This document shows, piece by piece, positions 4,112 through 18,447 of a DNA stretch of 28,927 nt; within the stretch, counting starts at the first letter, position 1, and every line of letters begins with the position of its first letter. Origin of the DNA: a virus (lineage: Duplodnaviria; Heunggongvirae; Uroviricota; Caudoviricetes); IMG/VR virus record IMGVR_UViG_3300046474_000142; one strand, given 5' to 3'. The translations under genes and the position numbers were made by a program. The notes beneath the pieces were generated by a model. The model made no database searches and had not been told where the DNA came from. It saw nothing but the letters and a program-made list of their open reading frames with translations.

Positions 4112-5185
4112 TTATGGGTGAATACTAAATTGAAAAATCTTACCTTCACCACTTTGCACAACGTACGCAAACTTCCCATCTGCTGATGTGAGTACCCCGT
4201 ATGGCCCTGCGTTCGACGCGGCGATAGCAGAAGCGCTAGGGTTTGACGGAACCAAGAATGGAACCTTCTTGATCGGCAAGCCATTTGTATTGATTGCTAG
4301 GTCGCGGGTAAGCTGTGCGATGTAGTTGCCATCGCTTCCCGGAATGTAGATGCTCTTGCCATCCGGTGTAATGGCGATACCGTACGGCCCATTAATTCCG
4401 CTGATTGTGCCTACCGCCGACAGAGCGCCGGTTCCTGTATCCCGCGTGAAAATGCCGATGTTCGCTGCGGTATCATTCGCCACATACAGATTCTTACCAT
4501 CGGGAGAGACTACAGCTACGGCGGGCCAACCGGCACTTGGGACAGTTGCCGCCCCCATCTGGTTGAGCAAGCCGGTCCCGGTGTCGCGGGTGTACTGCGA
4601 AATCGAGCCGCCGTTATTGCAGGAGTAGACGCTAGCACCATCCGGTGAAATCGTAATGCCCTGCTGCGAAGTTACGCCGGGTACTGTTGCCGGACTTAGT
4701 GCTACCAGTGCGCCCGTACCTGCATCGCGGGAGAACTGCGATACGAAGGCGTTATTACCGTGGGACACATAAACGTGCGTATTGTTGGTGTCAGGACTCA
4801 GCACAATACCGAACGGCTGTGTTCCACAAACCATAGCAGTCTGCTTAGTTAGCAGGCCGGTTCCTGTATCGCGGGAGTAAATGCCGATATCACTATTGCT
4901 AAAGTTTGGTGCGTAGACAAACTTGCCGTCATTACTAATAGCGACGAAGCGTGGGTTACGCCCTGACCCGCCTGCGCTCACAGAGGCGGGCGTCAGAGGG
5001 TTAAGCTGGCCTGTGTTTACATCACGCGAATACTGATAAATCGAATTGTTGCCAGAGGCAGCGACGTAGGCGAAATCGCCATTTGGTGAGATAACCATGT
5101 ACCACGGCTGTGTTCCTGCTGCTACAGACGTACCAATTGGCGATAGCGTGCCGGTTGCTGCGCTACCGCGTCTACGGCGCGTCAT
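4112..5185 (-). CDS. Beta-propeller protein (lactonase/YncE-like), putative virion appendage or receptor-binding protein
   Basis: About 7 repeats of SPDG..vYv...I.QY.RD..TG.L; start at 5185 gives an ATGA overlap with the upstream stop. Confidence 0.75.
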   Translation of the reverse strand: MTRRRRGSAATGTLSPIGTSVAAGTQPWYMVISPNGDFAYVAASGNNSIYQYSRDVNTGQLNPLTPASVSAGGSGRNPRFVAISNDGKFVYAPNFSNSDIGIYSRDTGTGLLTKQTAMVCGTQPFGIVLSPDTNNTHVYVSHGNNAFVSQFSRDAGTGALVALSPATVPGVTSQQGITISPDGASVYSCNNGGSISQYTRDTGTGLLNQMGAATVPSAGWPAVAVVSPDGKNLYVANDTAANIGIFTRDTGTGALSAVGTISGINGPYGIAITPDGKSIYIPGSDGNYIAQLTRDLAINTNGLPIKKVPFLVPSNPSASAIAASNAGPYGVLTSADGKFAYVVQSGEGKIFQFSIHP

Positions 5186-5853
5186 TGCGCACCTACGCAG
5201 ACCCAAGCGCCTGCACCCGCGTTAAGGGCTGAATTCCACTTCAACAGAACCGACAGCATCGCACCAGCGGTAGTAGAAGCAGGTAGGGTGACAGTTGATG
5301 ACGCGAATTTCGTACCCCATAGCGTGATATTGCGCGCCCCGCCGTTGTCGGTGATTTCAATCTCAATTTCTTCACCATGTACAGGCGTACCTGTGAGGCC
5401 GCTCGTCATCGAAGTGATGTTCTGTGCAAGGCCGGTGATGCGAAACACATCGCCCAGATCGGAATTGATAGCTGGCGTGGCGGACTGTGCAACGGTAACG
5501 ACGCGAGGCTGTGTACGCTTGTTTGTAAGCGTAACAGCGTTCTCACTGTCCACTGCGTAGCTCGCTGGGTAGACAACCGTTACATCTTTGCTGCCACTGG
5601 CGAACGTGACTGGCGTGGTTCCGCCTGCACTGCTTGAAATGACGCCGTTACGAGTTAATACGCCACCTGATAGCGTGTAGTACCCCAACTCCCACGCGCC
5701 AGCCGAGTCTGGGCCTACCTTGACAGGGATACGTGTGGCTCCGTCCGCGTAGGCGCTTGCAAACGTAAGATAACCTAGAGGGCTACCTGTAGGCGTAAAT
5801 GAAGCTGCGCTTACACTTGTAGTTGCTTCTTTTACGTTGTCCTTGTAATTCAT
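5182..5853 (-). CDS. Putative fibre/appendage virion protein
   Basis: N-terminal D.VKE.TT...WELG..T...LTR..V.SSS...F..G.KDV.V.YPA and C-terminal GTP..G..I.I.DNG.AR modules typical of phage fibre proteins. Confidence 0.65.
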   Translation of the reverse strand: MNYKDNVKEATTSVSAASFTPTGSPLGYLTFASAYADGATRIPVKVGPDSAGAWELGYYTLSGGVLTRNGVISSSAGGTTPVTFASGSKDVTVVYPASYAVDSENAVTLTNKRTQPRVVTVAQSATPAINSDLGDVFRITGLAQNITSMTSGLTGTPVHGEEIEIEITDNGGARNITLWGTKFASSTVTLPASTTAGAMLSVLLKWNSALNAGAGAWVCVGAQ

Positions 5854-5937: not shown

Positions 5938-6381
5938 TTAATCTTCTGTTACAAGGTTAGCTGCTGTAGTCATTGTCGGAGTGATGTTCACTGACAACGT
6001 TGTAGGGGAAGTCAGTTGGCCGGAGTAGAGAAGCTTACCAACGCCCGTCGCTGACGTACCGATACCGAAGTGGGAGATTGCCGCTCCCGGAGCGCCTGTG
6101 CAGGTTCCGAACGTTGCTGCTGCTGCCAGCGCTACAGCGTTAGCTGTTACCGTGAAGCCGGAAGTGCTACGAACCACAGGTACGCGTGCGTAGCCGGTGT
6201 AGGCCGTCTCGCTGGTGGACTGGTTGCCAGTCTCGTCCGGGTCGCCGGTGTGCAGGGACAAGTACAGGTTGCCAGCAGCAGCGCTGGGCTGTACACCGGC
6301 TGCGTCTCCCAGCGTGGCAATAGCTACGTTGTTGAAAATCAGGCGCATCAGGTCGTTTTCGAATGTATTGCTTTTTGACAT
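5938..6381 (-). CDS. Conserved phage virion/fibre-associated protein
   Basis: MSKSNTFEN..LYLSLHTGDP...E.AYTGYARV.V motif set seen in many phage fibre-associated proteins. Confidence 0.65.
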   Translation of the reverse strand: MSKSNTFENDLMRLIFNNVAIATLGDAAGVQPSAAAGNLYLSLHTGDPDETGNQSTSETAYTGYARVPVVRSTSGFTVTANAVALAAAATFGTCTGAPGAAISHFGIGTSATGVGKLLYSGQLTSPTTLSVNITPTMTTAANLVTED

Positions 6382-6422
6382 ATCTTTTCCTATTGTTAAA
6401 GTAGCTAAGCGGCTACATACGC

Positions 6423-6452
6423 AAAAAGCCCAACTCCGTTACAGAGTCAGGC
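6423..6452 (-). terminator. Intrinsic terminator at end of tRNA operon
   Basis: GCCTGACTC/GAGTTGGGC stem plus TTTTT. Confidence 0.75.
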
Positions 6453-6457
6453 GTGGA

Positions 6458-6535
6458 TGGCATACCCGGCATCGAATCGAACGCGCCACAGCAAGGTTTG
6501 GAGCCTCGCTCGCCAGCCTTGGAACATTCGGGTAT
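6458..6535 (-). tRNA. trnW: tRNA-Trp(CCA), bulged T stem
   Basis: ATACCCG/CGGGTAT acceptor, loop CTCCAAA, TTCGATT, encoded CCA. Confidence 0.85.
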
Positions 6536-6553
6536 ATGGTGTTATAATTTATG

Positions 6554-6681
6554 AGTGACTGGCTCGGCGTGTTAGCTACGGTTGAGCAAATCCCCTTAAC
6601 TTGTCGTGAAATCACGGCGGCTAAGACTTACAAGAAAGCAGCCTGCCTCTTCGGAGGGTCCGCTTTACAGGCACAGTCACC
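6554..6681 (-). ncRNA. Unassigned structured RNA candidate A
   Basis: GTGACTG/CAGTCAC closing stem with internal GCCTG/CAGGC, CCTC/GAGG, CTTGT/ACAAG, CGTGA/TCACG and GCTC/GAGC helices. Confidence 0.5.
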
Positions 6682-6713
6682 GGGGGCCGCACGAATGCGG
6701 CCTTCGTCATTTA

Positions 6714-6789
6714 TGGCACCGCTTACAGGAATCAAACCTGTTCAATAGATGGGTCAAAACCACCTGCCGTCTCATCTGGCTCAAGCGAT
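6714..6789 (-). tRNA. trnQ: tRNA-Gln(TTG), atypical D and T loops
   Basis: Loop TTTTGAC, G73, CCA; D loop lacks GG, T loop TTTGATT. Confidence 0.8.
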
Positions 6790-6800
6790 GATTGAAATCT

Positions 6801-6876
6801 TGGTAGTCCTACTGTGGATCGAACACAGATTGGTGGATTATCGGTCCACTGTTTTAACCAGTTAAACTACGGGACT
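6801..6876 (-). tRNA. trnI: tRNA-Ile(GAT)
   Basis: GTGGA-CCGATAA-TCCAC anticodon arm, TTCGATC, CCA. Confidence 0.9.
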
Positions 6877-6878
6877 AT

Positions 6879-7004
6879 TGGCGGGTTTGTACGGAAACCT
6901 CACATTAAACCGGCAGTAATCGCCTCAGTAGCACTTCCCTGCTTCCATGTACTTTAGTACCATCACGCCGTTCTTAGCCAATTAAGACCAATGTACGGCC
7001 AACC
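6879..7004 (-). ncRNA. Unassigned CCA-ended RNA candidate B
   Basis: Fills the gap between two tRNAs, ends CCGCCA; D-arm-like TCTT-AATTGGCT-AAGA inside GCCGT/ACGGC; GTAC-TAAA-GTAC, GCAG/CTGC and GGTTT/AAACC helices; no T loop. Confidence 0.45.
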
Positions 7005-7009
7005 TATTC

Positions 7010-7098
7010 TGGCGAAGGGTGAAGGAATCGAACCATTACCTGTTCCTCACAAGTACCAAGGATTTCAAGTCCTCTTTGCGTCCTACGCGGCACCCTCC
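7010..7098 (-). tRNA. trnS: tRNA-Ser(TGA)
   Basis: Loop CTTGAAA, long variable arm, G73, CCA. Confidence 0.88.
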
Positions 7099-7106
7099 AT
7101 ATTCTT

Positions 7107-7196
7107 TGGCGGAAGACTGACATCCCGACTGCCATACGCTCGACGCGTACCAAAGGCTTAGCAAGCCCCGCCAGCGCCCCGGCTGGTTAATCTTCC
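7107..7196 (-). tRNA. trnS: tRNA-Ser(GCT), non-canonical T loop
   Basis: GGAAGAT acceptor, loop TTGCTAA, long variable arm, T loop GTCGGGA, CCA. Confidence 0.8.
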
Positions 7197-7253
7197 TTTC
7201 ATTAGAATAAGCATTTTCAGCATTTGCTGAAACACTGCTTTGTAGTGAAAGTC

Positions 7254-7324
7254 TGGCACGTAGTAAAGGAGTCGAACCTCTCATCCAGCGTTCGTAGCGC
7301 CGAAGCCTGTCCTCTGGACCACGT
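7254..7324 (-). tRNA. trnR: tRNA-Arg(ACG), shortened D arm (atypical or pseudo)
   Basis: ACGTGGT/ACTACGT acceptor, loop CTACGAA, TTCGACT, CCA; 71 nt, about 4 nt missing after position 7. Confidence 0.7.
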
Positions 7325-7331
7325 ATTGTTC

Positions 7332-7405
7332 TGGACGCGATAGCGGTATTCTAAACCGCCTACGAAGCTTTGCAGGCAACTGCCTAGTCACTCGGCCATA
7401 TCGCG
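7332..7405 (-). tRNA. trnC: tRNA-Cys(GCA), atypical
   Basis: CGCGATA/TATCGCG, U73, loop CTGCAAA; T loop TTAGAAT, weak anticodon stem. Confidence 0.75.
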
Positions 7406-7430
7406 GGTTCTGTGCGCTGTGCGCTCATTC

Positions 7431-7501
7431 TGGTGGAGCATAACGGTATCGAACCGTTCCTACCGCAGTGCAAGTGCAGCGTCAAGCCCTCAAGATGCCC
7501 C
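7431..7501 (-). tRNA. trnA: tRNA-Ala(TGC), reduced D arm
   Basis: G3:U70 identity pair, loop CTTGCAC, CCA; only 15 nt between acceptor and anticodon stems. Confidence 0.75.
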
Positions 7502-7507
7502 GAAGCT

Positions 7508-7581
7508 TGGTACTCCCTGTAAGAATCGAACTTACGTAATCGCCGTGTAAGGACGAAGTTCTACCATTGAACTAAAGGAGC
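7508..7581 (-). tRNA. trnV: tRNA-Val(TAC)
   Basis: Canonical cloverleaf, loop CTTACAC, CCA. Confidence 0.93.
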
Positions 7582-7588
7582 AATGTAT

Positions 7589-7664
7589 TGGTATCCCGTG
7601 TGAGACTTGAACTCAACATTTGCGGATTGAAAGTCCACCGTCCTTACCTTTAGACGAACGAGAT
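7589..7664 (-). tRNA. trnE: tRNA-Glu(TTC)
   Basis: Loop CTTTCAA, TTCAAGT, CCA. Confidence 0.9.
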
Positions 7665-7670
7665 ATTGTT

Positions 7671-7762
7671 TGGTGCGCACAGATGGAATTGCACCACCGC
7701 CCGGTCGAGCCGACTACAGTTTTACAGACTGCGCTGACTTATCTAACATTCAGCTTGTACGC
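7671..7762 (-). tRNA. trnY: tRNA-Tyr(GTA)
   Basis: Loop CTGTAAA, long variable arm, CCA. Confidence 0.85.
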
Positions 7763-7771
7763 ATTGTTACT

Positions 7772-7846
7772 TGGTGCTCCCAGTTGGTATCGAGCCAACC
7801 TCGATTGCTTTTCAGGCAAACGCTAATCCATCTCAGCTACAGGAGC
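7772..7846 (-). tRNA. trnF: tRNA-Phe(GAA)
   Basis: Loop CTGAAAA, CCA. Confidence 0.9.
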
Positions 7847-7852
7847 AAATTC

Positions 7853-7976
7853 ATTTACGCATACGCCGACATCTTGCTAGGAGTCGTATTTCGTGAGCCA
7901 TGACCCCACGGTAGCTAGCACAGTACCGTTTACCAATGGGAATCGAACCCCGGTGTAGCACTACGTATGAGTAAAT
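7853..7976 (-). ncRNA. tRNA-mimic RNA candidate C (Y RNA/YrlA-like topology)
   Basis: ATTTAC-T-CATACG/CGTATG-C-GTAAAT terminal stem enclosing a GGG-TTCGATT-CCC T loop and an ACGGTA/TACCGT hairpin; no CCA. Confidence 0.55.
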
Positions 7977-7983
7977 AAATTCT

Positions 7984-8057
7984 TGGTGTGACGCTGGGTT
8001 TCAATCCCGATCCCTTAGTTTCACAGACTAAGATGCTCTCATTACACTATCGTCACC
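7984..8057 (-). tRNA. trnH: tRNA-His(GTG), atypical D and T loops
   Basis: TTAGT-CTGTGAA-ACTAA arm, possible G-1, T loop ATTGAAA, CCA. Confidence 0.75.
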
Positions 8058-8065
8058 ATTGAGCT

Positions 8066-8147
8066 TGGTATGCAAGGCCGGATTCGAACCGACAAAAGCG
8101 GAGGGTTTGAGCCTCTGGACTGTACCTATTTATCCTGCCACTCGCAC
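8066..8147 (-). tRNA. trnL: tRNA-Leu(CAA), short variable region
   Basis: Loop CTCAAAC, TTCGAAT, CCA. Confidence 0.8.
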
Positions 8148-8153
8148 ATTGTT

Positions 8154-8230
8154 TGGTAGGGAAGGTGGGACTTGAACCCACAGAATTTACTTTCTAAGAG
8201 TAACACGTATGCCAATTCCGTCACATCCCC
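8154..8230 (-). tRNA. trnL: tRNA-Leu(TAG), short variable region
   Basis: TTACT-CTTAGAA-AGTAA, TTCAAGT, CCA. Confidence 0.88.
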
Positions 8231-8327
8231 GTTGTTAGTGCTACCATTGCTGTCAGGCTGGATAGCGGCCTGTCCTTGTCGGGAGATTTGCCCTTCCGGG
8301 CTTTCCGGCTCTGCACGGGCCGAAACC

Positions 8328-8885
8328 TTACTTGTAGGACGCGCCTCTGCAAACCCTACTAATATTCGTGTGATGGACGTTGTACACGTTCGCTAATGCC
8401 CTTGCACCGTTCACCTTGCAACGCGGCTTGTATCTGCCCCGAATCTCCTTGACTTGATCCTCACTTAGACCGGCGTTCAAGTTATTACTCCCGCTGCGCT
8501 TCGCCACACTTGCTGCAAAGTTCGGTGCCAGCATGAAGTCAGCCGAGTTATCTTTGTACGTACCCCACGCTAGATTGCTGGCTGCGTTATCTGTTTTATC
8601 GCCGTTCAAGTGGCGAACGATTACGTTACCGTAGCCTTGTGAATTACACATTGACACTAGATCGTCGCTCGGAGCATCCAGAAAAGCCTCAGCGACCGCC
8701 CTGTGAATCTTAATGCAATGATTCGTCCCACCCCTTCCGCCGATCTTTGTTGCGACAGTCAGGTAGCCTTCCTTACTTACGTACTGCCTTAAAATCTTAC
8801 CGCTACGCTTGCTATACAGTGAGCCGAACTTCGACACTTTGAAGTACTCTTCGAATCCTACAACATCTTTCCAAACTTCCTGCAT
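8328..8885 (-). CDS. NUMOD4-HNH homing endonuclease inside tRNA cluster
   Basis: EVWKDVVGFEEYFKVS NUMOD4, IHRAVA, VRHLNGDKTDNAASNLAWG; C-terminal HTH. Confidence 0.9.
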   Translation of the reverse strand: MQEVWKDVVGFEEYFKVSKFGSLYSKRSGKILRQYVSKEGYLTVATKIGGRGGTNHCIKIHRAVAEAFLDAPSDDLVSMCNSQGYGNVIVRHLNGDKTDNAASNLAWGTYKDNSADFMLAPNFAASVAKRSGSNNLNAGLSEDQVKEIRGRYKPRCKVNGARALANVYNVHHTNISRVCRGASYK

Positions 8886-8982
8886 AATTACCCCTCCCAG
8901 AGTAAGTTGATAAATACGTTCAAGTCAGACGCCTCCTAGACACTGGGAGGGCGCTGTTGGCTGCGCCTGATTTGAAAGTACT

Positions 8983-9057
8983 TGGAGCAGCCTGAGAGTA
9001 CCGATCTCTCGTCCTTGTGCTTGGAAGGCACTCGCTCCACCATTGAGCTAAGGCTGC
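8983..9057 (-). tRNA. trnG: tRNA-Gly(TCC)
   Basis: Loop CTTCCAA, U73, CCA; T loop ATCGGTA. Confidence 0.88.
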
Positions 9058-9064
9058 TTTGTTT

Positions 9065-9140
9065 TGGCGCACTATAGCGGTTTCGATCCGCTTACCCTCT
9101 GCTCGACAGGCAGACGCTCTCCCGATTGAGCTAATAGTGC
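9065..9140 (-). tRNA. trnD: tRNA-Asp(GTC)
   Basis: TCTGC-CTGTCGA-GCAGA, G73, CCA. Confidence 0.9.
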
Positions 9141-9149
9141 ATATTGTTT

Positions 9150-9228
9150 TGGCTCCGTCCGCTGGAATCGAACCAGCCTAGTCATTGGTTAACAGCCAAG
9201 TCCATGCGCCATGCTCGGATTCGACGGA
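9150..9228 (-). tRNA. trnN: tRNA-Asn(GTT)
   Basis: Loop CTGTTAA, TTCGATT, G73, CCA. Confidence 0.88.
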
Positions 9229-9264
9229 ATAGAGACGCTTACGTGTATATCGTCACTCGTTAAT

Positions 9265-9340
9265 TGGTTGCGGATATAGGATTTGCACCTATGACGCACG
9301 GCTTATGAGGCCGCTCTTCTGACTACTGAATTAATCCGCA
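9265..9340 (-). tRNA. trnM: tRNA with CAT anticodon (Met, fMet or Ile2 unresolved)
   Basis: Loop CTCATAA, CCA; lacks the three consecutive G-C pairs of initiators. Confidence 0.8.
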
Positions 9341-9396
9341 AATGTCTCTGGCTTTCTGTTTCTCGGCTAGCCATGCCTCAGTGAGAGTAGATTAAC

Positions 9397-9801
9397 TCAC
9401 GCCGCTTCTGCGATTGCTCTTTCGCCAGCCGGTTTGTAAATCCAACCAAACTGCCTAGCAGTGCGGCGCTTGTGGCAGTTAGCACACCGAACGTCGCACT
9501 TATTAATCTCTTCTTGGAGCCTAGCGAGCGTTACATTGTTTCGTACCATGCGGGACAAAGAATCTGTCTTATCGCTTTGGTGATCGAACTCAAGTACCAC
9601 TGGGTCGCTTTCTCCGCAGTCCACGCAAGGGTGGCTGCTAAGGTATGTGGCAAGAAACTCGCGTCTCGCATTTTGCTGCTCTGCTTGACACTGTTTGCAG
9701 TGTCCAGACTTTTTCGTTGTACCGTAGAATTGATCCTTCGGCTTCCGTGTCTTACAACACGAACACAACTTATCGTCCAGAATCGGCCTTCCCATACCCA
9801 T
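9397..9801 (-). CDS. Zn-finger HNH endonuclease
   Basis: CxxC..CxxC then CVDCG...LEFDH...CDVRCANCH; start reassigned to MGMGRP at 9801 (AAGGAG RBS) because the longer ORF overlaps RNA elements. Confidence 0.8.
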   Translation of the reverse strand: MGMGRPILDDKLCSCCKTRKPKDQFYGTTKKSGHCKQCQAEQQNARREFLATYLSSHPCVDCGESDPVVLEFDHQSDKTDSLSRMVRNNVTLARLQEEINKCDVRCANCHKRRTARQFGWIYKPAGERAIAEAA

Positions 9802-9820
9802 GTAACTCTCCTTAACATCC

Positions 9821-9941
9821 CGCATACGTTCTTCAGCGGCGGATTCTCCTACGTACGTTAGGCCGGTCGTCTGCTGAATAGGCGTGGAATTGACGCCTCG
9901 TTTTAGGTCTGCTACCATCGTTGGGTAGCCTTTCGTATGCG
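9821..9941 (-). ncRNA. Multibranch RNA candidate D (between tRNA-like RNA and HNH)
   Basis: CGCATACG/CGTATGCG closing stem; GCTACC/GGTAGC, AGGCGT/ACGCCT, TTCAGC/GCTGAA and CCTA/TAGG helices. Confidence 0.55.
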
Positions 9942-9942
9942 C

Positions 9943-10067
9943 CGAGAACTGAGGGGATCGAACCCCCGACCTTCTTGCCAGTAGCAATGGTACGGTACGT
10001 TTCCGCACCAACGTGTGAACGTCTTCACCAAAACCAACAAGCTGCTCTACCGCTGAGCTAAGTTCCC
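9943..10067 (-). ncRNA. tRNA-like RNA with a 60-nt branched domain replacing the anticodon loop, no encoded CCA
   Basis: GGGAACT/AGTTCTC acceptor, GCTC-AGCGGTA-GAGC D arm, CTTG/CAAG stem, GGGGG-TTCGATC-CCCTC T arm; insert at 9978-10037. Confidence 0.8.
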
Positions 10068-10105
10068 ACTGAAATCTTTCGTAGCTAATTTCGCTACGTA
10101 CTGCT

Positions 10106-10144
10106 ATCATACAACATGACTTGTGTTTTGTCAAGTTTTGTGCA
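10106..10144 (-). promoter_or_regulatory. sigma70 promoter driving the tRNA-like RNA and downstream tRNAs
   Basis: TTGACA-17-TATGAT, preceded by TGCACAAAAC. Confidence 0.8.
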
Positions 10145-10147
10145 TTC

Positions 10148-10221
10148 TGGTCAGGGATGGTCGAATCGAACGACCGCTTCCTCGCTCCAAAGGAGGATGA
10201 CTACCATTATCCTAATCCCTG
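10148..10221 (-). tRNA. trnP: tRNA-Pro(TGG)
   Basis: CAGGGAT/ATCCCTG, loop TTTGGAG, CCA. Confidence 0.9.
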
Positions 10222-10225
10222 AAAA

Positions 10226-10309
10226 GAGTTTTACGACATACGTTTGTTGGTCGGCTGTTTTCGTCTCGCTTGACGCCTAGTTTGTTTCGTTGCGGTAACT
10301 AGGAAACTC
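10226..10309 (-). ncRNA. Cloverleaf-shaped RNA candidate E without tRNA consensus
   Basis: GAGTTT/AAACTC closing stem plus CCTAGTT/AACTAGG, CGTC/GACG and CGAC/GTCG hairpins. Confidence 0.45.
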
Positions 10310-10385
10310 TGGTGCCGTCACGAGGAATCGAACCCCGGACCTTCTGCTTACAAGGCAGTTGCTCTTCCAACTGAGCTATGACGGC
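10310..10385 (-). tRNA. trnT: tRNA-Thr(TGT)
   Basis: Canonical cloverleaf, loop CTTGTAA, CCA. Confidence 0.95.
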
Positions 10386-10457
10386 GAATTCTGCCCGGTT
10401 ACGTTTATCCGGGGCCGTAAGGCCGTATGGGCAACCAACCCAAGGAGAACATCGGAA

Positions 10458-10596
10458 GGGTAGTCGCCTACGGTAACACCGGAGCAATCCGTAGCGTACC
10501 GTTTCGGGGACAGGTTACTGCGCCAAGGCTCCTGCAACGTGGAGCCTATCGAGATGGGATCAACCTCCTTTCGGAATTGAACAATGGCGACTACCC
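10458..10596 (-). ncRNA. Structured RNA candidate F at head of tRNA operon
   Basis: Perfect 11-bp GGGTAGTCGCC/GGCGACTACCC stem enclosing a GAAA tetraloop hairpin, AGGCTCC/GGAGCCT and GTAAC/GTTAC. Confidence 0.55.
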
Positions 10597-10647
10597 AAAT
10601 CATCACAGCCCGTTGGTTCTTCGTGCTGTTTCATCTCTAGTACCGCT

Positions 10648-10686
10648 ATCTTACACTACGTACCCTTGTTTGTCAAGTTTTTGCAA
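10648..10686 (-). promoter_or_regulatory. sigma70 promoter of the tRNA operon (TACGTAGTG class)
   Basis: TTGACA-17-TAAGAT; 19 nt identical to the promoter at 1808-1846; -35 overlaps the HNH stop codon. Confidence 0.85.
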
Positions 10687-11221
10687 CAACCCTTGACTTA
10701 CCGAACCATTCTAGGTTATCTACGTGGTTGTTTTTCGCATTGTCGTCCTTGTGACGGATGTTGCGATTACCACCGGGATTCGGTAGGTGCGTAGCAGCCA
10801 CTAGGCGGTGTACGTACTTGATCGTAGTGCCAGTTGAAATGTACTGGTAGCCTTTGCTACCTTTCAGCGTAACCGGGCTAAGCCACTTTGCACGACAGTG
10901 CGACCAAATACGCCCGTCGCGGGTAGCGGACCACTTACCTTCGAAGCCGGGAACCGGCAGGGCGTCAGTGGCCTCAAACTCTGCGATGCGGGCTTCACGG
11001 GCTGCTGTGTCGGCTTCGACAGCTTCCACTACGTCCTTACCTACCTTCGCAATGCGCTTGTCACGCTTCAGTGTCTTGCGGACTTGGCGAAGCTGCTCTA
11101 CAATGTCAAGACGGCCATTGCTGGTGTACGTCTTGATTGCGATATGGAGCGCTTGCCGGGAGATTCCCTTAGCTCGTTCCACTGCTTCGTCCAAGGTTAA
11201 ATCTTTCCAGCTCTTCGCCAT
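10673..11221 (-). CDS. NUMOD4-HNH endonuclease with helical N-terminal extension
   Basis: PVPGFEGKWSATRDGRIWS, YVHRLVA, RHKDDNAKNNHVDNLEW. Confidence 0.8.
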   Translation of the reverse strand: MAKSWKDLTLDEAVERAKGISRQALHIAIKTYTSNGRLDIVEQLRQVRKTLKRDKRIAKVGKDVVEAVEADTAAREARIAEFEATDALPVPGFEGKWSATRDGRIWSHCRAKWLSPVTLKGSKGYQYISTGTTIKYVHRLVAATHLPNPGGNRNIRHKDDNAKNNHVDNLEWFGKSRVVAKT

Positions 11222-11246: not shown

Positions 11247-11582
11247 TTAGACTTCTTGGATATTGTTCATATCCAGACGGGGAGCTGCTGGTTTCGGTAC
11301 ATCGTCCCCTACCAGCGGAGTCTTCAACCCGCTAGCCTTGATTTCTGCGATCTGGCGAGTCAGTTCATCTTTGTTGATGGCCTCGCTTACCTTGATCTTG
11401 TAGTCAAGCAGCTTGTCAGCACATGCTACGCGGACCTTGACCGCCTCTTTTGGGTTGTTCATTGTGTCAACGAGAAGGTCAACCGCTTCCGGTGTAACTC
11501 TGTCGAGTTGCTTCAACAGGTCATCGAGTTCGTGTTTTCTCTTCAAAAACACGGCTCCTGCCTTTAGGGCTATAGTAGCCAT
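11247..11582 (-). CDS. Hypothetical protein, possible terminase small subunit
   Basis: Small helical protein with VRVACADKLLD resembling TerS central motifs; heads the packaging transcript direction. Confidence 0.4.
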   Translation of the reverse strand: MATIALKAGAVFLKRKHELDDLLKQLDRVTPEAVDLLVDTMNNPKEAVKVRVACADKLLDYKIKVSEAINKDELTRQIAEIKASGLKTPLVGDDVPKPAAPRLDMNNIQEV

Positions 11583-12196
11583 TATTTAGTTCCTTGATTA
11601 GCTCTCCGATCCCGCATTGCTTGCTTGATCTTAGCCTTATGTTCGTCTGACAGCCTCCTACCCTTGAGCGGTGATGGCTGCTCAGCGTAGCGTTTAGCCG
11701 TTGCCTCTTTATTCCTCTGCTTCCACAATTCCGACCTAGGCCGGGTTGCCGCAACGGACATCTTCTGCTTTGTTGCTGCTGTCATCGCTTGCTGAGCCTT
11801 CGACATATTTGCTCTCACAATCTCTGTTACAGTCGTCCCTAGCCTGCCCGCTGCTAATTTTCGTCTAGTGCTGTCCCCTACCTTCTTTCCAGAGGCTCCT
11901 TCGCCTCCGTCTGTTAGGTTTGCAAGAATCCCAGTACTATTGTCCTTCCTGCCGTACTGCGCGATAAGCTCAGCTTCTAGTTTAAATGCAGCAGCCTCAT
12001 CGGGAGTGCGGTGGAGAGTTTCCACTAAGACTTCAACACCTTCTCTCGTCGCTTTCTTAATCGTGTTGCTTTTCAATGAGTTCCGCGCAAGATTGCTAGG
12101 GTAGAAGTGATGTGACGAACGATTACCTTTGCCCTTGCCAATGTAGAACGGAAGCTCTGACGTAGCTAGTCTTAACTGGTAGACGTAAAAGTCCAT
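11582..12196 (-). CDS. GIY-YIG homing endonuclease with NUMOD3 repeats
   Basis: FYVYQL...PFYIGKG..R...H, E.ELI..YGR....G.LANLTDGGEG, LSDEHKAKIK; start at 12196 (AAGGAG RBS). Confidence 0.88.
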   Translation of the reverse strand: MDFYVYQLRLATSELPFYIGKGKGNRSSHHFYPSNLARNSLKSNTIKKATREGVEVLVETLHRTPDEAAAFKLEAELIAQYGRKDNSTGILANLTDGGEGASGKKVGDSTRRKLAAGRLGTTVTEIVRANMSKAQQAMTAATKQKMSVAATRPRSELWKQRNKEATAKRYAEQPSPLKGRRLSDEHKAKIKQAMRDRRANQGTK

Positions 12197-12225
12197 GTAC
12201 CACTCCTTAGTCTCTATGTACAGCG

Positions 12226-12265
12226 ATTGTACACTACGTACCACGTTTTGTCAACTTTACGCAAC
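12226..12265 (-). promoter_or_regulatory. sigma70 promoter (TACGTAGTG class)
   Basis: TTGACA-17-TACAAT with spacer ending TACGTAGTG. Confidence 0.85.
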
Positions 12266-13220: not shown

Positions 13221-13616
13221 ATGAGTAACCTATCCGTCCTCCGCAATGCCCTGAAGCTGAACGCCGAACTCATCAACTTCATCCAGTACGCAATCTTCGA
13301 GTTCAAGGCCGAGGCTGCACGGTGGAAGTTGGAGGGCGAGACTGCTTACTTCATCGCCGCCAATGAAGACCGCCGCAAGCACGAGAAGAAGCTGGCGAAG
13401 GCGATTGAGATGCAGAAGCGTACGAAGGCAGAAATCGCTACCGCAGTCCGTAAGGAAGCGATCCGCCGCATGTTCCTGTTCGTCTTCGGAAAATGCCCGG
13501 AACAGCAAGTGAACACTTCGCAGGAACAGTACAAGATGCTGGCAACGTTGGCTGAAGAACGTCGCGCTGCGCTGCGTCTGGCGAAGAAAGCTGCGAGTGT
13601 TACGAATGCAGCCTAA
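13221..13616 (+). CDS. Hypothetical helical/coiled-coil protein
   Basis: AGGAG RBS, 131 aa. Confidence 0.75.
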   Translation: MSNLSVLRNALKLNAELINFIQYAIFEFKAEAARWKLEGETAYFIAANEDRRKHEKKLAKAIEMQKRTKAEIATAVRKEAIRRMFLFVFGKCPEQQVNTSQEQYKMLATLAEERRAALRLAKKAASVTNAA

Positions 13617-14328
13617 GTTCAAGGACATTGCAGGGTTGGAGGGGCGGTACGCCGCTTCTTCTGACGGAAGAATTTGGAGCTACAAGTCCGAAAGGTTCCT
13701 TAAACCGGCAAAAATCGGGAGGGGATACGATGCAGTGTCACTTCCGGTCGGGCCTGAAGGGAAACAAATTCGACAGTACGTGCATCGACTAGTTGCCAGA
13801 GCATTCCTCCCGAATTTGGAAGGCAAGGCTGAAGTAAATCACATCAACGGCGTCAAAACTGACAACCGTGCGGCGAACTTGGAGTGGGTAACTCGCCGGG
13901 AGAACATTGCGCACGCGGTGAGTACTGGGCTTTCGAAGGTCATGGGAGAAGACAATCCTATGGCTAAGCTAGACGAGATGCGGGTTGCTGAAATACGTGA
14001 GAGGTACTTCAATGGCCCGGAGACTCAGGATGAACTGGGGGTAGCTTTCGGGGTCCACAGGGTGCTGATAAAGAAGATCGTCACAGGGGCGATCTGGCCC
14101 CTTAACTGGAAAGCTGAATACAACCTGCCTCCCGGTTGGAAGACGAAGCTTCAGGTTGCGAAAAACAGCCGATACGACCACGCCCTCGCTACCGTCATCC
14201 GCCAAAGGTACGCCGAAGGCGGATGTACACATAGGGGTCTAGCGAAAGAATTTGGACTCCCCCATCCGACGATTAACCTGATTGTGAACGGAAGAGACTG
14301 GACTACGAAATACCCGTTGACCGTCTGA
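13606..14328 (+). CDS. NUMOD4-HNH homing endonuclease with two C-terminal HTH repeats
   Basis: FKDIAGLEGRYAASSDGRIWS, YVHRLVA, EVNHINGVKTDNRAANLEW. Confidence 0.92.
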   Translation: MQPKFKDIAGLEGRYAASSDGRIWSYKSERFLKPAKIGRGYDAVSLPVGPEGKQIRQYVHRLVARAFLPNLEGKAEVNHINGVKTDNRAANLEWVTRRENIAHAVSTGLSKVMGEDNPMAKLDEMRVAEIRERYFNGPETQDELGVAFGVHRVLIKKIVTGAIWPLNWKAEYNLPPGWKTKLQVAKNSRYDHALATVIRQRYAEGGCTHRGLAKEFGLPHPTINLIVNGRDWTTKYPLTV

Positions 14329-14371: not shown

Positions 14372-15034
14372 ATGGCGAAGAAGAAGATTCTGGGGTATTG
14401 CAGGGTGAGTACTAAGGAGCAGGGCAAGACCCGCAACGGTCTGGAAGCTCAGGCCGAAGCAATCCGCTTGTTCGCCCACTACAACGGGTACGAGCTGATC
14501 GAGATTGCTGAGGAAGTCGAATCCGGCGCTGACGATAGCCGTCCGGTGCTGGCCGATGTCACCAAGCGTGCAGCCAAGTTGGGCGCTTACGTGGTCGTCA
14601 ATAAGCTTGACCGCCTCTCCCGCGATGCCCTGTTCATCCTCACGTATGTGAAGACGAATCCCCGCTTCATCGTCACGATGTTGGGGGAGGATGTTGACCC
14701 GTTCATGCTTCACATCTATGCCGCTCTGGCCGAGAAGGAGCGTGCGCAGATTTCCGACCGCACCCGTGCTGCCCTTCAGGCAAAGAAAGCCCGTGGGGAG
14801 GCTCTTGGAGCGTCACAGGCGGTTTTGAAGAAGGCCACGGCCAGCTCCATCGTCGCCATGCAGTCGCAGGCTGACGCGTTCGCAGCTCGGATGAAGACCA
14901 CTGTTAAGCGGATGGTTGACGCTGGGATGTCTTACAGGGCCATCGCCGCTGAGTTGAATCAGAACGGCACCAAGACTGCCCGTGGCGGTGATTGGCACGC
15001 TATGACGGTGAGCAATCTGGTAGCGCGTTTCTGA
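14372..15034 (+). CDS. Small serine recombinase (resolvase/invertase catalytic domain plus recombinase-type DNA-binding tail)
   Basis: GYCRVST catalytic Ser, KLDRLSRD, AEKER..IS.RT; C-terminal SYRAIA.ELN..G..T.RGG.W. Confidence 0.92.
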   Translation: MAKKKILGYCRVSTKEQGKTRNGLEAQAEAIRLFAHYNGYELIEIAEEVESGADDSRPVLADVTKRAAKLGAYVVVNKLDRLSRDALFILTYVKTNPRFIVTMLGEDVDPFMLHIYAALAEKERAQISDRTRAALQAKKARGEALGASQAVLKKATASSIVAMQSQADAFAARMKTTVKRMVDAGMSYRAIAAELNQNGTKTARGGDWHAMTVSNLVARF

Positions 15035-16671: not shown

Positions 16672-16700
16672 TTGACTTCTGAGGTAGGGTGTGGTACTAT
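16672..16700 (+). promoter_or_regulatory. sigma70 promoter
   Basis: TTGACT-17-TACTAT. Confidence 0.7.
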
Positions 16701-16721
16701 ACACACTTTAAGAGGTACGTA

Positions 16722-17222
16722 GTGGCAGCTAAGATCGAAGACGGAATGACGCCAAAGCAGCGTTATTTCAAGAAAAAGTATGACGAAGCCCCGCTGATCG
16801 CATGTGCTTGCGGTTGCGGGGAACAGTTGAAGGCGGTGGACAAGTATGCTCGTCCGGTGAAGTATGTAAATGGGCATAACACGCGCATTGAAGAAGGGCG
16901 CAGCCTTACGGACTGGGAAGTAGAGAAACGCTGGCGGGTAAAGAATCCAGATAAGATGCGGGAAGCCAAGACTGCGTTCTACCGGAAGCGAAAGCTTCTT
17001 GCTATGGAACTGAAAGGGAACGAGTGCTCGTTCTGCGGTATGGGGTACAACGGAAAGAACGCTGCGGCTTTTGAATTTCATCACTCTGACCCTTCAGTTA
17101 AAGAGTACACGATAAGCAAAATGCTGATTAACAAGGCGTGGGATTCTACGCTGAAAGAACTTGAAGTTTGCGTGCTAGCGTGCGCTAACTGCCACAACCA
17201 ACACCACAGCCCCGGCTGGTAA
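16722..17222 (+). CDS. Zn-finger HNH endonuclease
   Basis: CACGCG, CSFCG...FEFHH.DP...CVLACANCH; GTG start after AAGAGG. Confidence 0.8.
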   Translation: MAAKIEDGMTPKQRYFKKKYDEAPLIACACGCGEQLKAVDKYARPVKYVNGHNTRIEEGRSLTDWEVEKRWRVKNPDKMREAKTAFYRKRKLLAMELKGNECSFCGMGYNGKNAAAFEFHHSDPSVKEYTISKMLINKAWDSTLKELEVCVLACANCHNQHHSPGW

Positions 17223-17232
17223 AGGAGAGAAT

Positions 17233-18447
17233 ATGCAATTGAAGACTACTGCACACCAAGTCATTAAAGATGAAGGTTCTGCACCTATCAAGATTTGGAC
17301 GAAAGACGTTGAAGACTCTGCCATGCTTCAGTTGAAAAACATCGCCCGTCTTCCGTTTATTGCGAAGGAAGGTATTGCTGTCATGCCGGACGTACACAGC
17401 GGGATCGGCTCTACTGTTGGCAGCGTTGTAGCTACGGAGAAGGCCATAGTTCCCGCGATGGTGGGCGTCGATTTGGGTTGCGGAATGGTGGCTACGCGCC
17501 TGTCGCTGAAAATGAGCCAGTTGCCGGATTCGCTGGCGAAGATTCGTAGCGCTATCGAAGCCGCTGTGCCGATGGGAACTGGCGGGGAGCACAAGAACGA
17601 CAGGTACTACTACGATAAGGTACGCGACTGGGCGAAAATCCCTGACGCAGTTCAGGTCGTTTTCAAGGGCGACGAAGGAAAGGCTGCACTGAAGGCTGGT
17701 AAGCAGCTCGGTACGCTCGGCTCTGGCAACCATTTCATCGAAATCTGCGGCGACGAGAACGATGATGTCTGGGTTATGCTGCACTCTGGCTCCCGTGGCA
17801 TCGGCAACATGATCGGTACGTACTACATCAACAAGGGCAAGGAGCTGATGGAACAGTTCCACATCACGCTACCGGACGGCGATCTGGCCTACCTGCCGCA
17901 AGGTACTGACCTGTTCGATGACTACGTAGCAGCCGTCCAATGGGCGCAAGACTACGCGATGGAAAACCGTAAGGCGATGCTGCAAGCTGTGCTGGATGTG
18001 CTCCGCAAGGAAATCACCGTCCCGTTCGGCATCACCGAAGAGGCGATCAACTGCCATCACAACTACGTAGTGAAGGAGAAGCATTTTGGAAAAGACCTGT
18101 GGATTACCCGCAAAGGTGCTATCAAGGCTGGTGTTGACGACCTCGGCATCATCCCTTCCGCGATGGGCCAGACCAGCTTCATCGTAAGGGGCAAAGGTAA
18201 CAAGGAGTCCTACTGTTCATGCTCCCACGGCTCCGGTCGTAAGATGTCACGAACGAAGGCTAAGCAGCAGTTCACTGTTGCCGACCTCATCGCACAGACG
18301 CAGGGCGTCGAGTGTCGCAAGGATAGCGCTGTGCTGGACGAGATTCCGTCGAGCTACAAGGACATCGAGACGGTGATGAAGAATCAAGAGTCGCTGGTGG
18401 AAGTCGTACACCGACTGAAAGCCGTTTTGTGCTGTAAGGGGGCGTAA
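17233..18447 (+). CDS. rtcB: RtcB RNA ligase
   Basis: MPDVHSG, VDLGCG, GNHFIE, HSGSRG, HHNY, SHGSGR, DEIPSSYK motifs. Confidence 0.96.
   Translation: MQLKTTAHQVIKDEGSAPIKIWTKDVEDSAMLQLKNIARLPFIAKEGIAVMPDVHSGIGSTVGSVVATEKAIVPAMVGVDLGCGMVATRLSLKMSQLPDSLAKIRSAIEAAVPMGTGGEHKNDRYYYDKVRDWAKIPDAVQVVFKGDEGKAALKAGKQLGTLGSGNHFIEICGDENDDVWVMLHSGSRGIGNMIGTYYINKGKELMEQFHITLPDGDLAYLPQGTDLFDDYVAAVQWAQDYAMENRKAMLQAVLDVLRKEITVPFGITEEAINCHHNYVVKEKHFGKDLWITRKGAIKAGVDDLGIIPSAMGQTSFIVRGKGNKESYCSCSHGSGRKMSRTKAKQQFTVADLIAQTQGVECRKDSAVLDEIPSSYKDIETVMKNQESLVEVVHRLKAVLCCKGA

Follow-up and report, generated by a model that had tools for sequence, protein, structure and literature searches.

Conserved structured RNAs interleaved with the tRNA genes of an uncultured phage

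The stretch of DNA analysed here (the window; 28,927 nucleotides (nt), IMG/VR record IMGVR_UViG_3300046474_000142) comes from an uncultured phage of a clade with genomes of roughly 90 kb, and carries a transfer RNA (tRNA) operon. We found that this operon probably holds six non-tRNA RNA modules that are interleaved with the tRNA genes and maintained by selection for base pairing: a leader RNA (element A), a composite of a tRNA-shaped RNA and a four-arm RNA (element E), and elements F, I and C. Sequence comparison established that the modules are conserved, covarying, non-coding and absent from Rfam, and that E is widely spread among phages. An initial annotation of the window had listed nine self-contained folds between the tRNAs; all of them, and all tRNAs, lay on the minus strand at the positions it gave. 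Four of the nine (10458–10596, 9943–10067, 9821–9941 and 7853–7976) were genuine conserved RNAs, while the other five lacked support or differed from what had been proposed.

Six structured RNA modules in the tRNA operon

The operon and its modules are as follows.

6428–10676, minus strand: tRNA operon with two sigma-70-type promoters and one terminator
10648–10676, minus strand: promoter P1 of the operon, TTGACA-17-TAAGAT; a promoter-like sequence is also found upstream of element A in relatives
10386–10604, minus strand: element A, structured leader RNA of ~215 nt (core z −5.2; covariation)
10106–10134, minus strand: internal promoter P2, TTGACA-17-TATGAT, followed by a 5' hairpin
9943–10067, minus strand: CCA-less tRNA-shaped RNA (Rfam tRNA model, 44.9 bits)
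9821–9941, minus strand: element E, member of a ~115-nt family (z −3.6; covariation)
9345–9425, minus strand: element F, three hairpins (covariation), unlisted in the initial annotation
7847–7984, minus strand: element I, RNA of ~135 nt (covariation), containing the annotated fold 7853–7976
6945–7008, minus strand: element C, two hairpins, the 5' half of the annotated fold 6879–7004
6428–6452, minus strand: intrinsic terminator closing the operon

Relatives were gathered by a Gp80-like protein search and by DNA-pattern scans of IMG/VR, and the comparison set comprised about 14 contigs of 85–92 kb with syntenic tRNA clusters. Searches with blastn and nhmmer revealed several conserved non-tRNA stretches, some more conserved than the tRNAs. 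Between the window and the related locus L009, element C was 95% and tRNA-Asp 97% identical, compared with 62% for the neighbouring Gp80-like protein. Folding-energy z scores were calculated from 200 shuffles, and covariation was tested against 500 shuffles and slid controls. Folding energy was outstanding for only two folds, 10458–10596 (z −5.2) and 9821–9941 (z −3.6), and ranged from z −0.2 to −1.9 for the remaining listed folds. Elements A, C, F and I were confined to the roughly 90-kb phage clade, with 8–14 contigs each.

The core of element A (10458–10596) was closed by an 11-bp stem and followed by two or three further hairpins up to tRNA-Thr. It was conserved in at least 10 contigs, and the conservation ran on to the tRNA gene (10386). 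Both the closing stem and the inner helices covaried: of 54 pairs, 94% were paired across the alignment and 14 had changed on both sides, a result reached in 0 of 500 shuffles. Insertions and deletions in A among the relatives were not multiples of three, indicating that it is non-coding. Two short stretches of A, at 10560–10580 and 10430–10450, were invariant, comprising a complement of the 16S ribosomal RNA 3' tail (AAGGAGGU, then GAUC) and an anti-Shine-Dalgarno-like CUCCUU. Judged by sequence, each stretch has three possible pairing partners: the other stretch, the ribosome, and ribosome-binding sites.

Element I was composed, in order, of a closing stem of ~19 bp, a T-loop-like hairpin (GGUUCGAUUCC), a variable hairpin, the strand GCUACCG, a hairpin, the strand CGAAAU, and a hairpin with the loop UAGC. 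GCUACCG, CGAAAU and UAGC were invariant, and the closing stem and two hairpins covaried (33 pairs, 95% paired, 11 compensatory, 0 of 500 shuffles). The seven distinct copies of I lay either between tRNA-His and tRNA-Phe or between tRNA-Glu and tRNA-Val, depending on the phage. Scans of bacterial genomes for I gave 26 matches, which were all ordinary tRNAs followed by chance matches. A permuted or split tRNA was considered for I and rejected, as no complementary acceptor halves were visible by eye.

Element C occupied one half of a fold (6879–7004) whose annotated borders and closing stem were not conserved. The real RNA at 6945–7008 covaried (13 sequences; 8 of the 16 pairs compensatory) and contained the invariant single strands AGGUUG, AAGAA and GUGAUG. 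It was directly 5' of tRNA-Ile(GAU) in all 13 loci for which the neighbour was available, and the upstream tRNA varied among Ser, His and Arg. Of the 78 loci retrieved by pattern scanning of metagenomes for C, only four were not chance matches, and scans of bacterial genomes returned none. Element F, present in 12 contigs that all belong to the clade, usually precedes tRNA-Met. Its core was nearly invariant, and its third stem differed in almost every phage, covarying around the fixed loop CCRAGAAACAGAA; a search of the window for seed complements of this loop gave matches at chance level only. Small open reading frames (ORFs) were rejected as an explanation for C, F and I, since their stem lengths vary.

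An Infernal search of Rfam and a covariation test in homologous clusters had been suggested in the initial annotation as checks. Covariation was found for A, I, C, F, E and the insert of the tRNA-shaped RNA. In Rfam 15, both at the gathering threshold and at E ≤ 10, only tRNA-type matches and no other known family appeared in the operon (6200–10900). The proposal that several of the spacers are genuine, undescribed structured RNAs was borne out, with undescribed meaning that they match nothing in Rfam 15. None of the known self-cleaving ribozymes (hammerhead, twister, twister-sister, pistol, hatchet, hepatitis delta virus (HDV)-like) matched the operon in Rfam at E ≤ 10, nor did they match at E ≤ 0.1 in six loci with consensus copies of E. 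Searching INPHARED by blastn with A and I gave no matches, and literature searches aimed at these RNA families found no paper on them.

We propose that the modules would be co-transcribed with the tRNAs from the promoters at 10648–10676 and 10106–10134 to the terminator at 6428–6452. They would then be freed by RNase P, cutting at the tRNA that follows, and by 3' processing of the tRNA that precedes. The closing stems start 2–5 nt downstream of one tRNA and extend almost to the following one, so that tRNA processing could release the RNAs, and the arrangement fits the release by flanking tRNA processing that the initial annotation had assumed, with release itself a prediction. By analogy with species 1 and 2 RNAs of phage T4, the freed modules may accumulate as discrete stable small RNAs. 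The invariant loops on variable stems argue for a specific partner of each RNA, and each is predicted to be read by a sequence-specific partner, either a protein or another RNA.

Several points weigh against this interpretation. The phage is uncultured and the discrete RNA products are deduced from sequence, while the partners and targets of all elements are predictions. The alignments comprise 6–7 sequences for A, 6–7 for I and two for the insert of the tRNA-shaped RNA. Kinship of the sequences alone can outdo shuffle controls without any structure, though the slid controls were low too, and the z scores of the single-sequence folds were unremarkable for I and C. The conserved spacers could also act only in cis and have no function once released. 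They might serve as folding insulators, as entry or stop sites for nucleases, as protection of the 5' end, or in antitermination of an untranslated precursor of 4.2 kb. This would fit the position of A right after the promoter, the ties of C to tRNA-Ile and usually of F to tRNA-Met, the closing stems that draw neighbouring tRNA ends together, and the short conserved leader ahead of tRNA-Pro. However, invariant loops on freely varying stems exceed the needs of insulation, I swaps neighbours between phages, and E stands alone in a Vibrio phage with a terminator-like hairpin behind it. We therefore consider an exclusively cis role, including the functions just named, rather unlikely.

A tRNA-shaped RNA coupled to element E

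The composite module begins with the RNA at 9943–10067. Its acceptor, D and T arms are normal, while a 60-nt domain takes the place of the anticodon loop and forms two hairpins, with the loops GACG and AAACGUA. With 60 nt between the strands of the anticodon stem and no CCA, this RNA does not qualify as a decoding tRNA, and it was the sole tRNA-shaped gene of the operon without an encoded CCA. In the related locus L065, the same 60-nt insert was found in another tRNA body: five of seven acceptor pairs had changed on both sides, and both hairpins of the insert covaried. When this RNA and E were together compared with L065, 22 of 58 pairs were compensatory. The insert, 59–60 nt in length, folds as a three-way junction on an extended stem. 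A pattern scan for tRNAs with this insert retrieved only L065 and two chance matches, and no isoacceptor identity of the tRNA-like bodies was clear.

Could the RNA at 9943–10067 be a real tRNA gene with a short intron, which an endonuclease excises before RtcB seals the ends? In archaea and animals, protein-dependent tRNA splicing uses RtcB as its ligase. Both carriers of the insert encode RtcB, the tRNA body is good (44.9 bits), and the insert is positioned in the anticodon loop. Yet a group I intron was rejected, as its P1–P9 core needs at least 200 nt, and no bulge-helix-bulge motif, with its two 3-nt bulges around a 4-bp helix, was visible. By eye, no excision common to the window and L065 gave a canonical 7-nt loop with U33 and a purine at position 37. 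This gene alone among the tRNA-shaped genes of the operon lacks an encoded CCA, and the anticodon arms of its counterparts in other phages do not decode and look quite unlike its own. We regard the intron as scarcely credible.

Element E consists of a closing stem and three inner arms, with the conserved strands CAGAACUAAAAC, a GGUAAUCAG-type strand and GGAAC. In the family, the order is a closing stem, AAGG, a hairpin, CAGAACUAAAAC, a hairpin GAGGCGU/ACGCCU, a stem around the conserved internal loop and a small hairpin, and GGAAC. The window copy scored 66 bits against the family profile with all helices aligned, which places it in the family. Its GGUAAUCAG strand has diverged to GGAGAAUCCG, and its inner loop and small hairpin were the most diverged of 11 copies. 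A 21-nt pattern from the central hairpin was found in 27 IMG/VR contigs of 4 to 317 kb. Among the 11 full-length copies, from 11 phages, 16 of 26 pairs were compensatory and 95% were paired (0 of 500 shuffles; slid controls gave at most six pairs). No Rfam family matched the E copies. Unannotated copies occur in Pseudomonas phages Psa21 and D6, in 47-kb Vibrio phages, and in phage TPWB-08. On this sequence evidence, E is a widespread RNA family of unrelated phages that is absent from Rfam. The central hairpin (CUAAAAC, then GAGGCGU-loop-ACGCCU) was also seen on its own (L190:3077–3113, L193:4116–4153, L206:12857–12902, L211:9006–9043 and others), in several cases between two T-arm-like hairpins of phage tRNA clusters, and may be a reusable module.

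E started 2–3 nt past the acceptor strand of a CCA-less tRNA-like gene in eight of the 10 full copies examined, and also in TPWB-08. This gene cannot decode, and each lineage has its own abnormality of the anticodon arm. In Vibrio phage MG592478, E is intergenic and followed by a GC-rich hairpin and a T-run, which by eye resemble a terminator. The tRNA-like gene ahead of E is probably a processing handle that would set the 5' end of E, and perhaps also a docking domain.

A bolder reading is that the CCA-less, non-decoding tRNA look-alike and E form a new functional class, which recurs next to tRNA genes in unrelated phages and is over-represented in those that encode RtcB. Such a class could be a self-processing RNA, an RNA ligated (circularised) by RtcB, or a decoy in the shape of a tRNA that disarms host nucleases directed at tRNAs. 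We hold this reading to be doubtful. If it were true, the clade-specific elements A, C, F and I would be further undescribed effectors of one operon.

Relation to RtcB, Rsr and known RNAs

The initial annotation had attributed the RNAs to an arsenal of tRNA mimics, decoys or scaffolds working with the phage RtcB against tRNA-targeting defences. The window does encode an RtcB RNA ligase:

17233–18447, plus strand: RtcB RNA ligase gene (Pfam PF01139, 1e-118), 7 kb from the operon

Two modules resemble tRNAs in part, one through its tRNA-like body and the other, I, through its T loop. Within the clade, RtcB is present in the window and in genomes G001 and G005, and the tRNA-like RNA with E was found only in RtcB-positive genomes (the window and G005). 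RtcB was also found in six of the 10 complete or near-complete genomes with E (the window, G005, G008, G009, G011 and G012), suggestive of an enrichment of RtcB among E-bearing genomes, though not of a dependence. The other four (G006, G007, MG592478 and PQ358087) carry E without RtcB. Counted by lineage, the link was roughly three in seven, without an RtcB base rate for comparison. The RtcB gene is distant and on the opposite strand, and G001 has RtcB yet lacks the tRNA-like RNA with E. Moreover, G002, G003 and G004, which are complete or near-complete and lack RtcB, keep A, C and F, and I is kept in G003 and G004. Joint action with RtcB against such defences is thus unlikely.

A further possibility is that element I is a YrlA-type, Y-RNA-like tRNA mimic that binds a host or phage Ro60/Rsr protein, the initial annotation having also pointed to the bacterial link of RtcB with Y RNAs and Rsr. 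I shares with YrlA RNAs (RF02553; Chen et al. 2014, PMC4201824) the order of modules, i.e., a long end-to-end stem, a T-loop hairpin and a variable closed hairpin. Some relatives encode Rsr inside the tRNA cluster: a TROVE (Ro60/Rsr) gene of 436 amino acids was found within those of L009 (6415–7725) and L052 (99–1403). However, I gave no match to the YrlA covariance model RF02553, which was in the library searched, even at E ≤ 10 (6200–10900). The 5' strand of I, AUUUAYUUAC..., lacks the GNCGAAN0-1G motif, one of the criteria of PMC4201824. A D loop with a conserved GG is also missing from I, whose hairpin at the D position has a freely varying loop. Unlike YrlA, it has extra hairpins and the invariant GCUACCG, CGAAAU and UAGC.

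The presence of I also did not track that of Rsr. No TROVE-like ORF was found in the window or in the complete genomes G001, G004 and G005, which keep I or other RNAs; I is present in G001 and G004, and was not found in the available part of the Rsr-bearing L052. The Rsr gene of L009 is flanked by other T-arm-bearing sequences that are absent from the window. In our view, it is very unlikely that I is such a Y-RNA mimic, and the Rsr link as a whole was not supported for the RNAs of the window. Elements are kept in complete genomes that lack RtcB or TROVE, and the set of non-tRNA RNAs, which is heterogeneous, does not depend on phage RtcB or Rsr. In the flanks of the L009 Rsr gene, a motif of the GGTTACTTC type is repeated and a T-arm-like hairpin occurs; these flanks have homologues in L052 and L150 and are possible Y RNAs.

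The closest precedent is phage T4, in which tRNAs, the segB messenger RNA and the species I and II RNAs derive from one precursor (PMC2330249). In the T4 annotation, rnaC and rnaD neighbour tRNA-Arg and segB falls within the cluster, and the analogy drawn in the initial annotation holds in this respect; rnaC has a T arm. In both phages, small non-tRNA RNAs lie on the tRNA strand of a cluster that contains a homing-endonuclease gene. The two T4 RNAs are at the 3' end of the cluster, whereas the six modules here are spread through the operon and one of them is the leader. Searches for similarity to rnaC and rnaD, by nhmmer with profiles A, B, C and I and by blastn against the window, found only the T-loop word.

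Two other kinds of RNA can be compared. Spacer-derived small RNAs of bacterial tRNA operons, such as 3'ETS-leuZ of Escherichia coli, are short base-pairing sponges. Like them, the elements here would be trans-acting by-products of tRNA-precursor processing, but they are larger multi-helix folds. Theta (minimal HDV-like) ribozymes are reported to occur next to phage tRNA genes (Kienbeck et al. 2024, PMC10879173). They resemble E in being structured RNAs beside a phage tRNA gene, E starting within a few nt of the tRNA-like acceptor end. E differs in having a nested four-arm fold rather than the double pseudoknot of HDV-like ribozymes, no Rfam ribozyme match, and a non-decoding look-alike as its partner.

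tRNA inventory, other spacers and implications

The operon contains 21 decoding tRNA genes for 19 amino acids, with Lys absent; all 21 encode CCA.

10310–10385, minus strand: tRNA-Thr(UGU)
10148–10221, minus strand: tRNA-Pro(UGG)
9265–9340, minus strand: tRNA-Met(CAU)
9150–9228, minus strand: tRNA-Asn(GUU)
9065–9140, minus strand: tRNA-Asp(GUC)
8983–9057, minus strand: tRNA-Gly(UCC)
8154–8230, minus strand: tRNA-Leu(UAG), ARAGORN
8066–8140, minus strand: tRNA-Leu(CAA), ARAGORN
7985–8057, minus strand: tRNA-His(GUG), ARAGORN
7772–7846, minus strand: tRNA-Phe
7671–7762, minus strand: tRNA-Tyr, relaxed ARAGORN only
7589–7664, minus strand: tRNA-Glu
7508–7581, minus strand: tRNA-Val
7431–7501, minus strand: tRNA-Ala, relaxed ARAGORN only
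7332–7405, minus strand: tRNA-Cys, relaxed ARAGORN only; 40.5 bits in Rfam
7254–7324, minus strand: tRNA-Arg(ACG)
7107–7196, minus strand: tRNA-Ser(GCU), class II, non-canonical; comparative cloverleaf
7010–7098, minus strand: tRNA-Ser(UGA)
6801–6876, minus strand: tRNA-Ile(GAU)
6714–6789, minus strand: tRNA-Gln(UUG)
6458–6535, minus strand: tRNA-Trp(CCA), non-canonical; relaxed ARAGORN

Default ARAGORN reported 15 tRNAs in the operon, compared with 21 after the fuller analysis. Relaxed ARAGORN added Trp, Cys, Ala, Tyr and Asn, and Rfam added a tRNA at 7335–7405 as well as the 125-nt match at 9943–10067. The six genes missed by default ARAGORN were all non-canonical (6458–6535, 7107–7196, 7332–7405, 7431–7501, 7671–7762 and 9150–9228), and several of them were also missed by the Rfam tRNA model; tRNA-Ala has an odd D arm and keeps G3:U70.

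The totals of 21 tRNAs and 19 amino acids include the overlooked tRNA-Ser(GCU), which occupies the gap 7099–7253 upstream of tRNA-Ser(UGA). It has a 7-bp acceptor stem, G73, an encoded CCA, the invariant loop UUGCUAA, a long covarying variable arm and an atypical T loop (GUCGGGA), and was unreported by the Rfam tRNA model. Its cloverleaf of 27 pairs was 99.3% paired across 10 sequences with 10 compensatory pairs, which identifies it as a tRNA. ARAGORN named its homologues as tRNA-Ser, i.e., gct in L148 (default) and Ser in L064 (relaxed threshold), and very relaxed settings produced noise and still did not find the gene in the window. Among the relatives, the tRNA-Thr, -Pro and -Lys genes were 84–88 nt long (L001:6614–6697, L008:6940–7026, L009:5209–5295, L052:1762–1849), with a small extra hairpin in the variable region that is unusual for class I tRNAs; Asn, Met and other tRNA genes were comparably long.

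The remaining spacers and the HNH genes are listed below.

10226–10309, minus strand: Thr-Pro spacer (z −1.85), no consensus pairs
9397–9801, minus strand: HNH homing-endonuclease gene of 134 amino acids, intact frame from the ATG at 9801 (phrog_2255, 1e-31)
8328–8982, minus strand: mobile HNH cassette, comprising a 5' untranslated region (UTR; 8886–8982) and a NUMOD4/HNH_3 ORF (8328–8885; Pfam)
8231–8327, minus strand: spacer before tRNA-Leu (z −0.2), only 46 nt of which are common with one relative, L058
6877–6944, minus strand: unconserved rest of fold 6879–7004 (whole-fold z −0.68), without homologues
6536–6713, minus strand: window-specific Gln-Trp spacer with fold 6554–6681 (z −1.1)

In the Thr-Pro spacer, conservation was limited to a leader of ~33 nt before tRNA-Pro (about 10226–10258). 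No homologue of fold 6554–6681 was found in any locus compared, and tRNA-Gln and tRNA-Trp are adjacent in L008 and L065. As judged from these comparisons, the annotated folds 6554–6681, 8231–8327 and 10226–10309 are ordinary spacers without comparative support. The fold at 8886–8975 belongs to the 5' UTR of an HNH gene. A 92% identical copy of this UTR lies directly after tRNA-Glu in L060, where a Glu-Val gap of ~620 nt would fit the ORF, and UTR and ORF are thus most plausibly one mobile cassette. The sequence CCCUCCCAG, which precedes the HNH start, complements the ribosome-binding site CUGGGAGGG. This points to occluded translation in the long precursor, a mechanism also proposed for T4 segB. 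The count and borders of the initially annotated folds therefore needed revision: three were unsupported, one was the HNH UTR, one gap was a tRNA, and F (9345–9425) had been omitted.

The 134-amino-acid HNH gene separates E from F; the insertion lies immediately upstream of F, and the end of the gene falls within that element. In L065, E and F are 130 nt apart with no ORF between them. Both HNH genes appear to have invaded the tRNA operon. Seven homing-endonuclease-type genes (HNH, GIY-YIG and other types) were found in the 29 kb (1144–1779, 8328–8885, 9397–9801, 10673–11221, 11582–12244, 13597–14328 and 16689–17222), one of them directly upstream of RtcB. The tRNA-cluster spacers that hold small HNH genes vary from relative to relative; in L058, for instance, one lies between A and tRNA-Thr.

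Besides RtcB and many homing endonucleases, the window encodes a Mu-type portal, a large terminase and a Gp80-like fibre protein. INPHARED contained no close relative of the phage, the nearest cultured terminase being that of Pseudomonas phage G1 (40% identity). The gene for a lactonase-type beta-propeller protein of 364 amino acids (4112–5206) lies between those for the terminase and the fibre-like protein. A serine recombinase with Resolvase N-terminal and Recombinase domains is encoded at 14372–15034, and the relatives have direct terminal repeats and look lytic.

Stable RNAs in the tRNA region of T4 have been known for decades. The phenomenon is thus known in kind, and the present operon shows a richer form of it, with RNA families that are absent from Rfam. 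Five RNA families are peculiar to one uncultured clade, and the sixth, E, is shared with unrelated phages. Because E occurs in the culturable phages Psa21, D6 and Vibrio phage 1.106.O, the role of non-tRNA RNAs in phage tRNA clusters is directly testable. Default tRNA finders overlook about a third of the tRNAs of this phage, and such overlooked tRNAs would distort studies of codon usage and of tRNA-based counter-defence.

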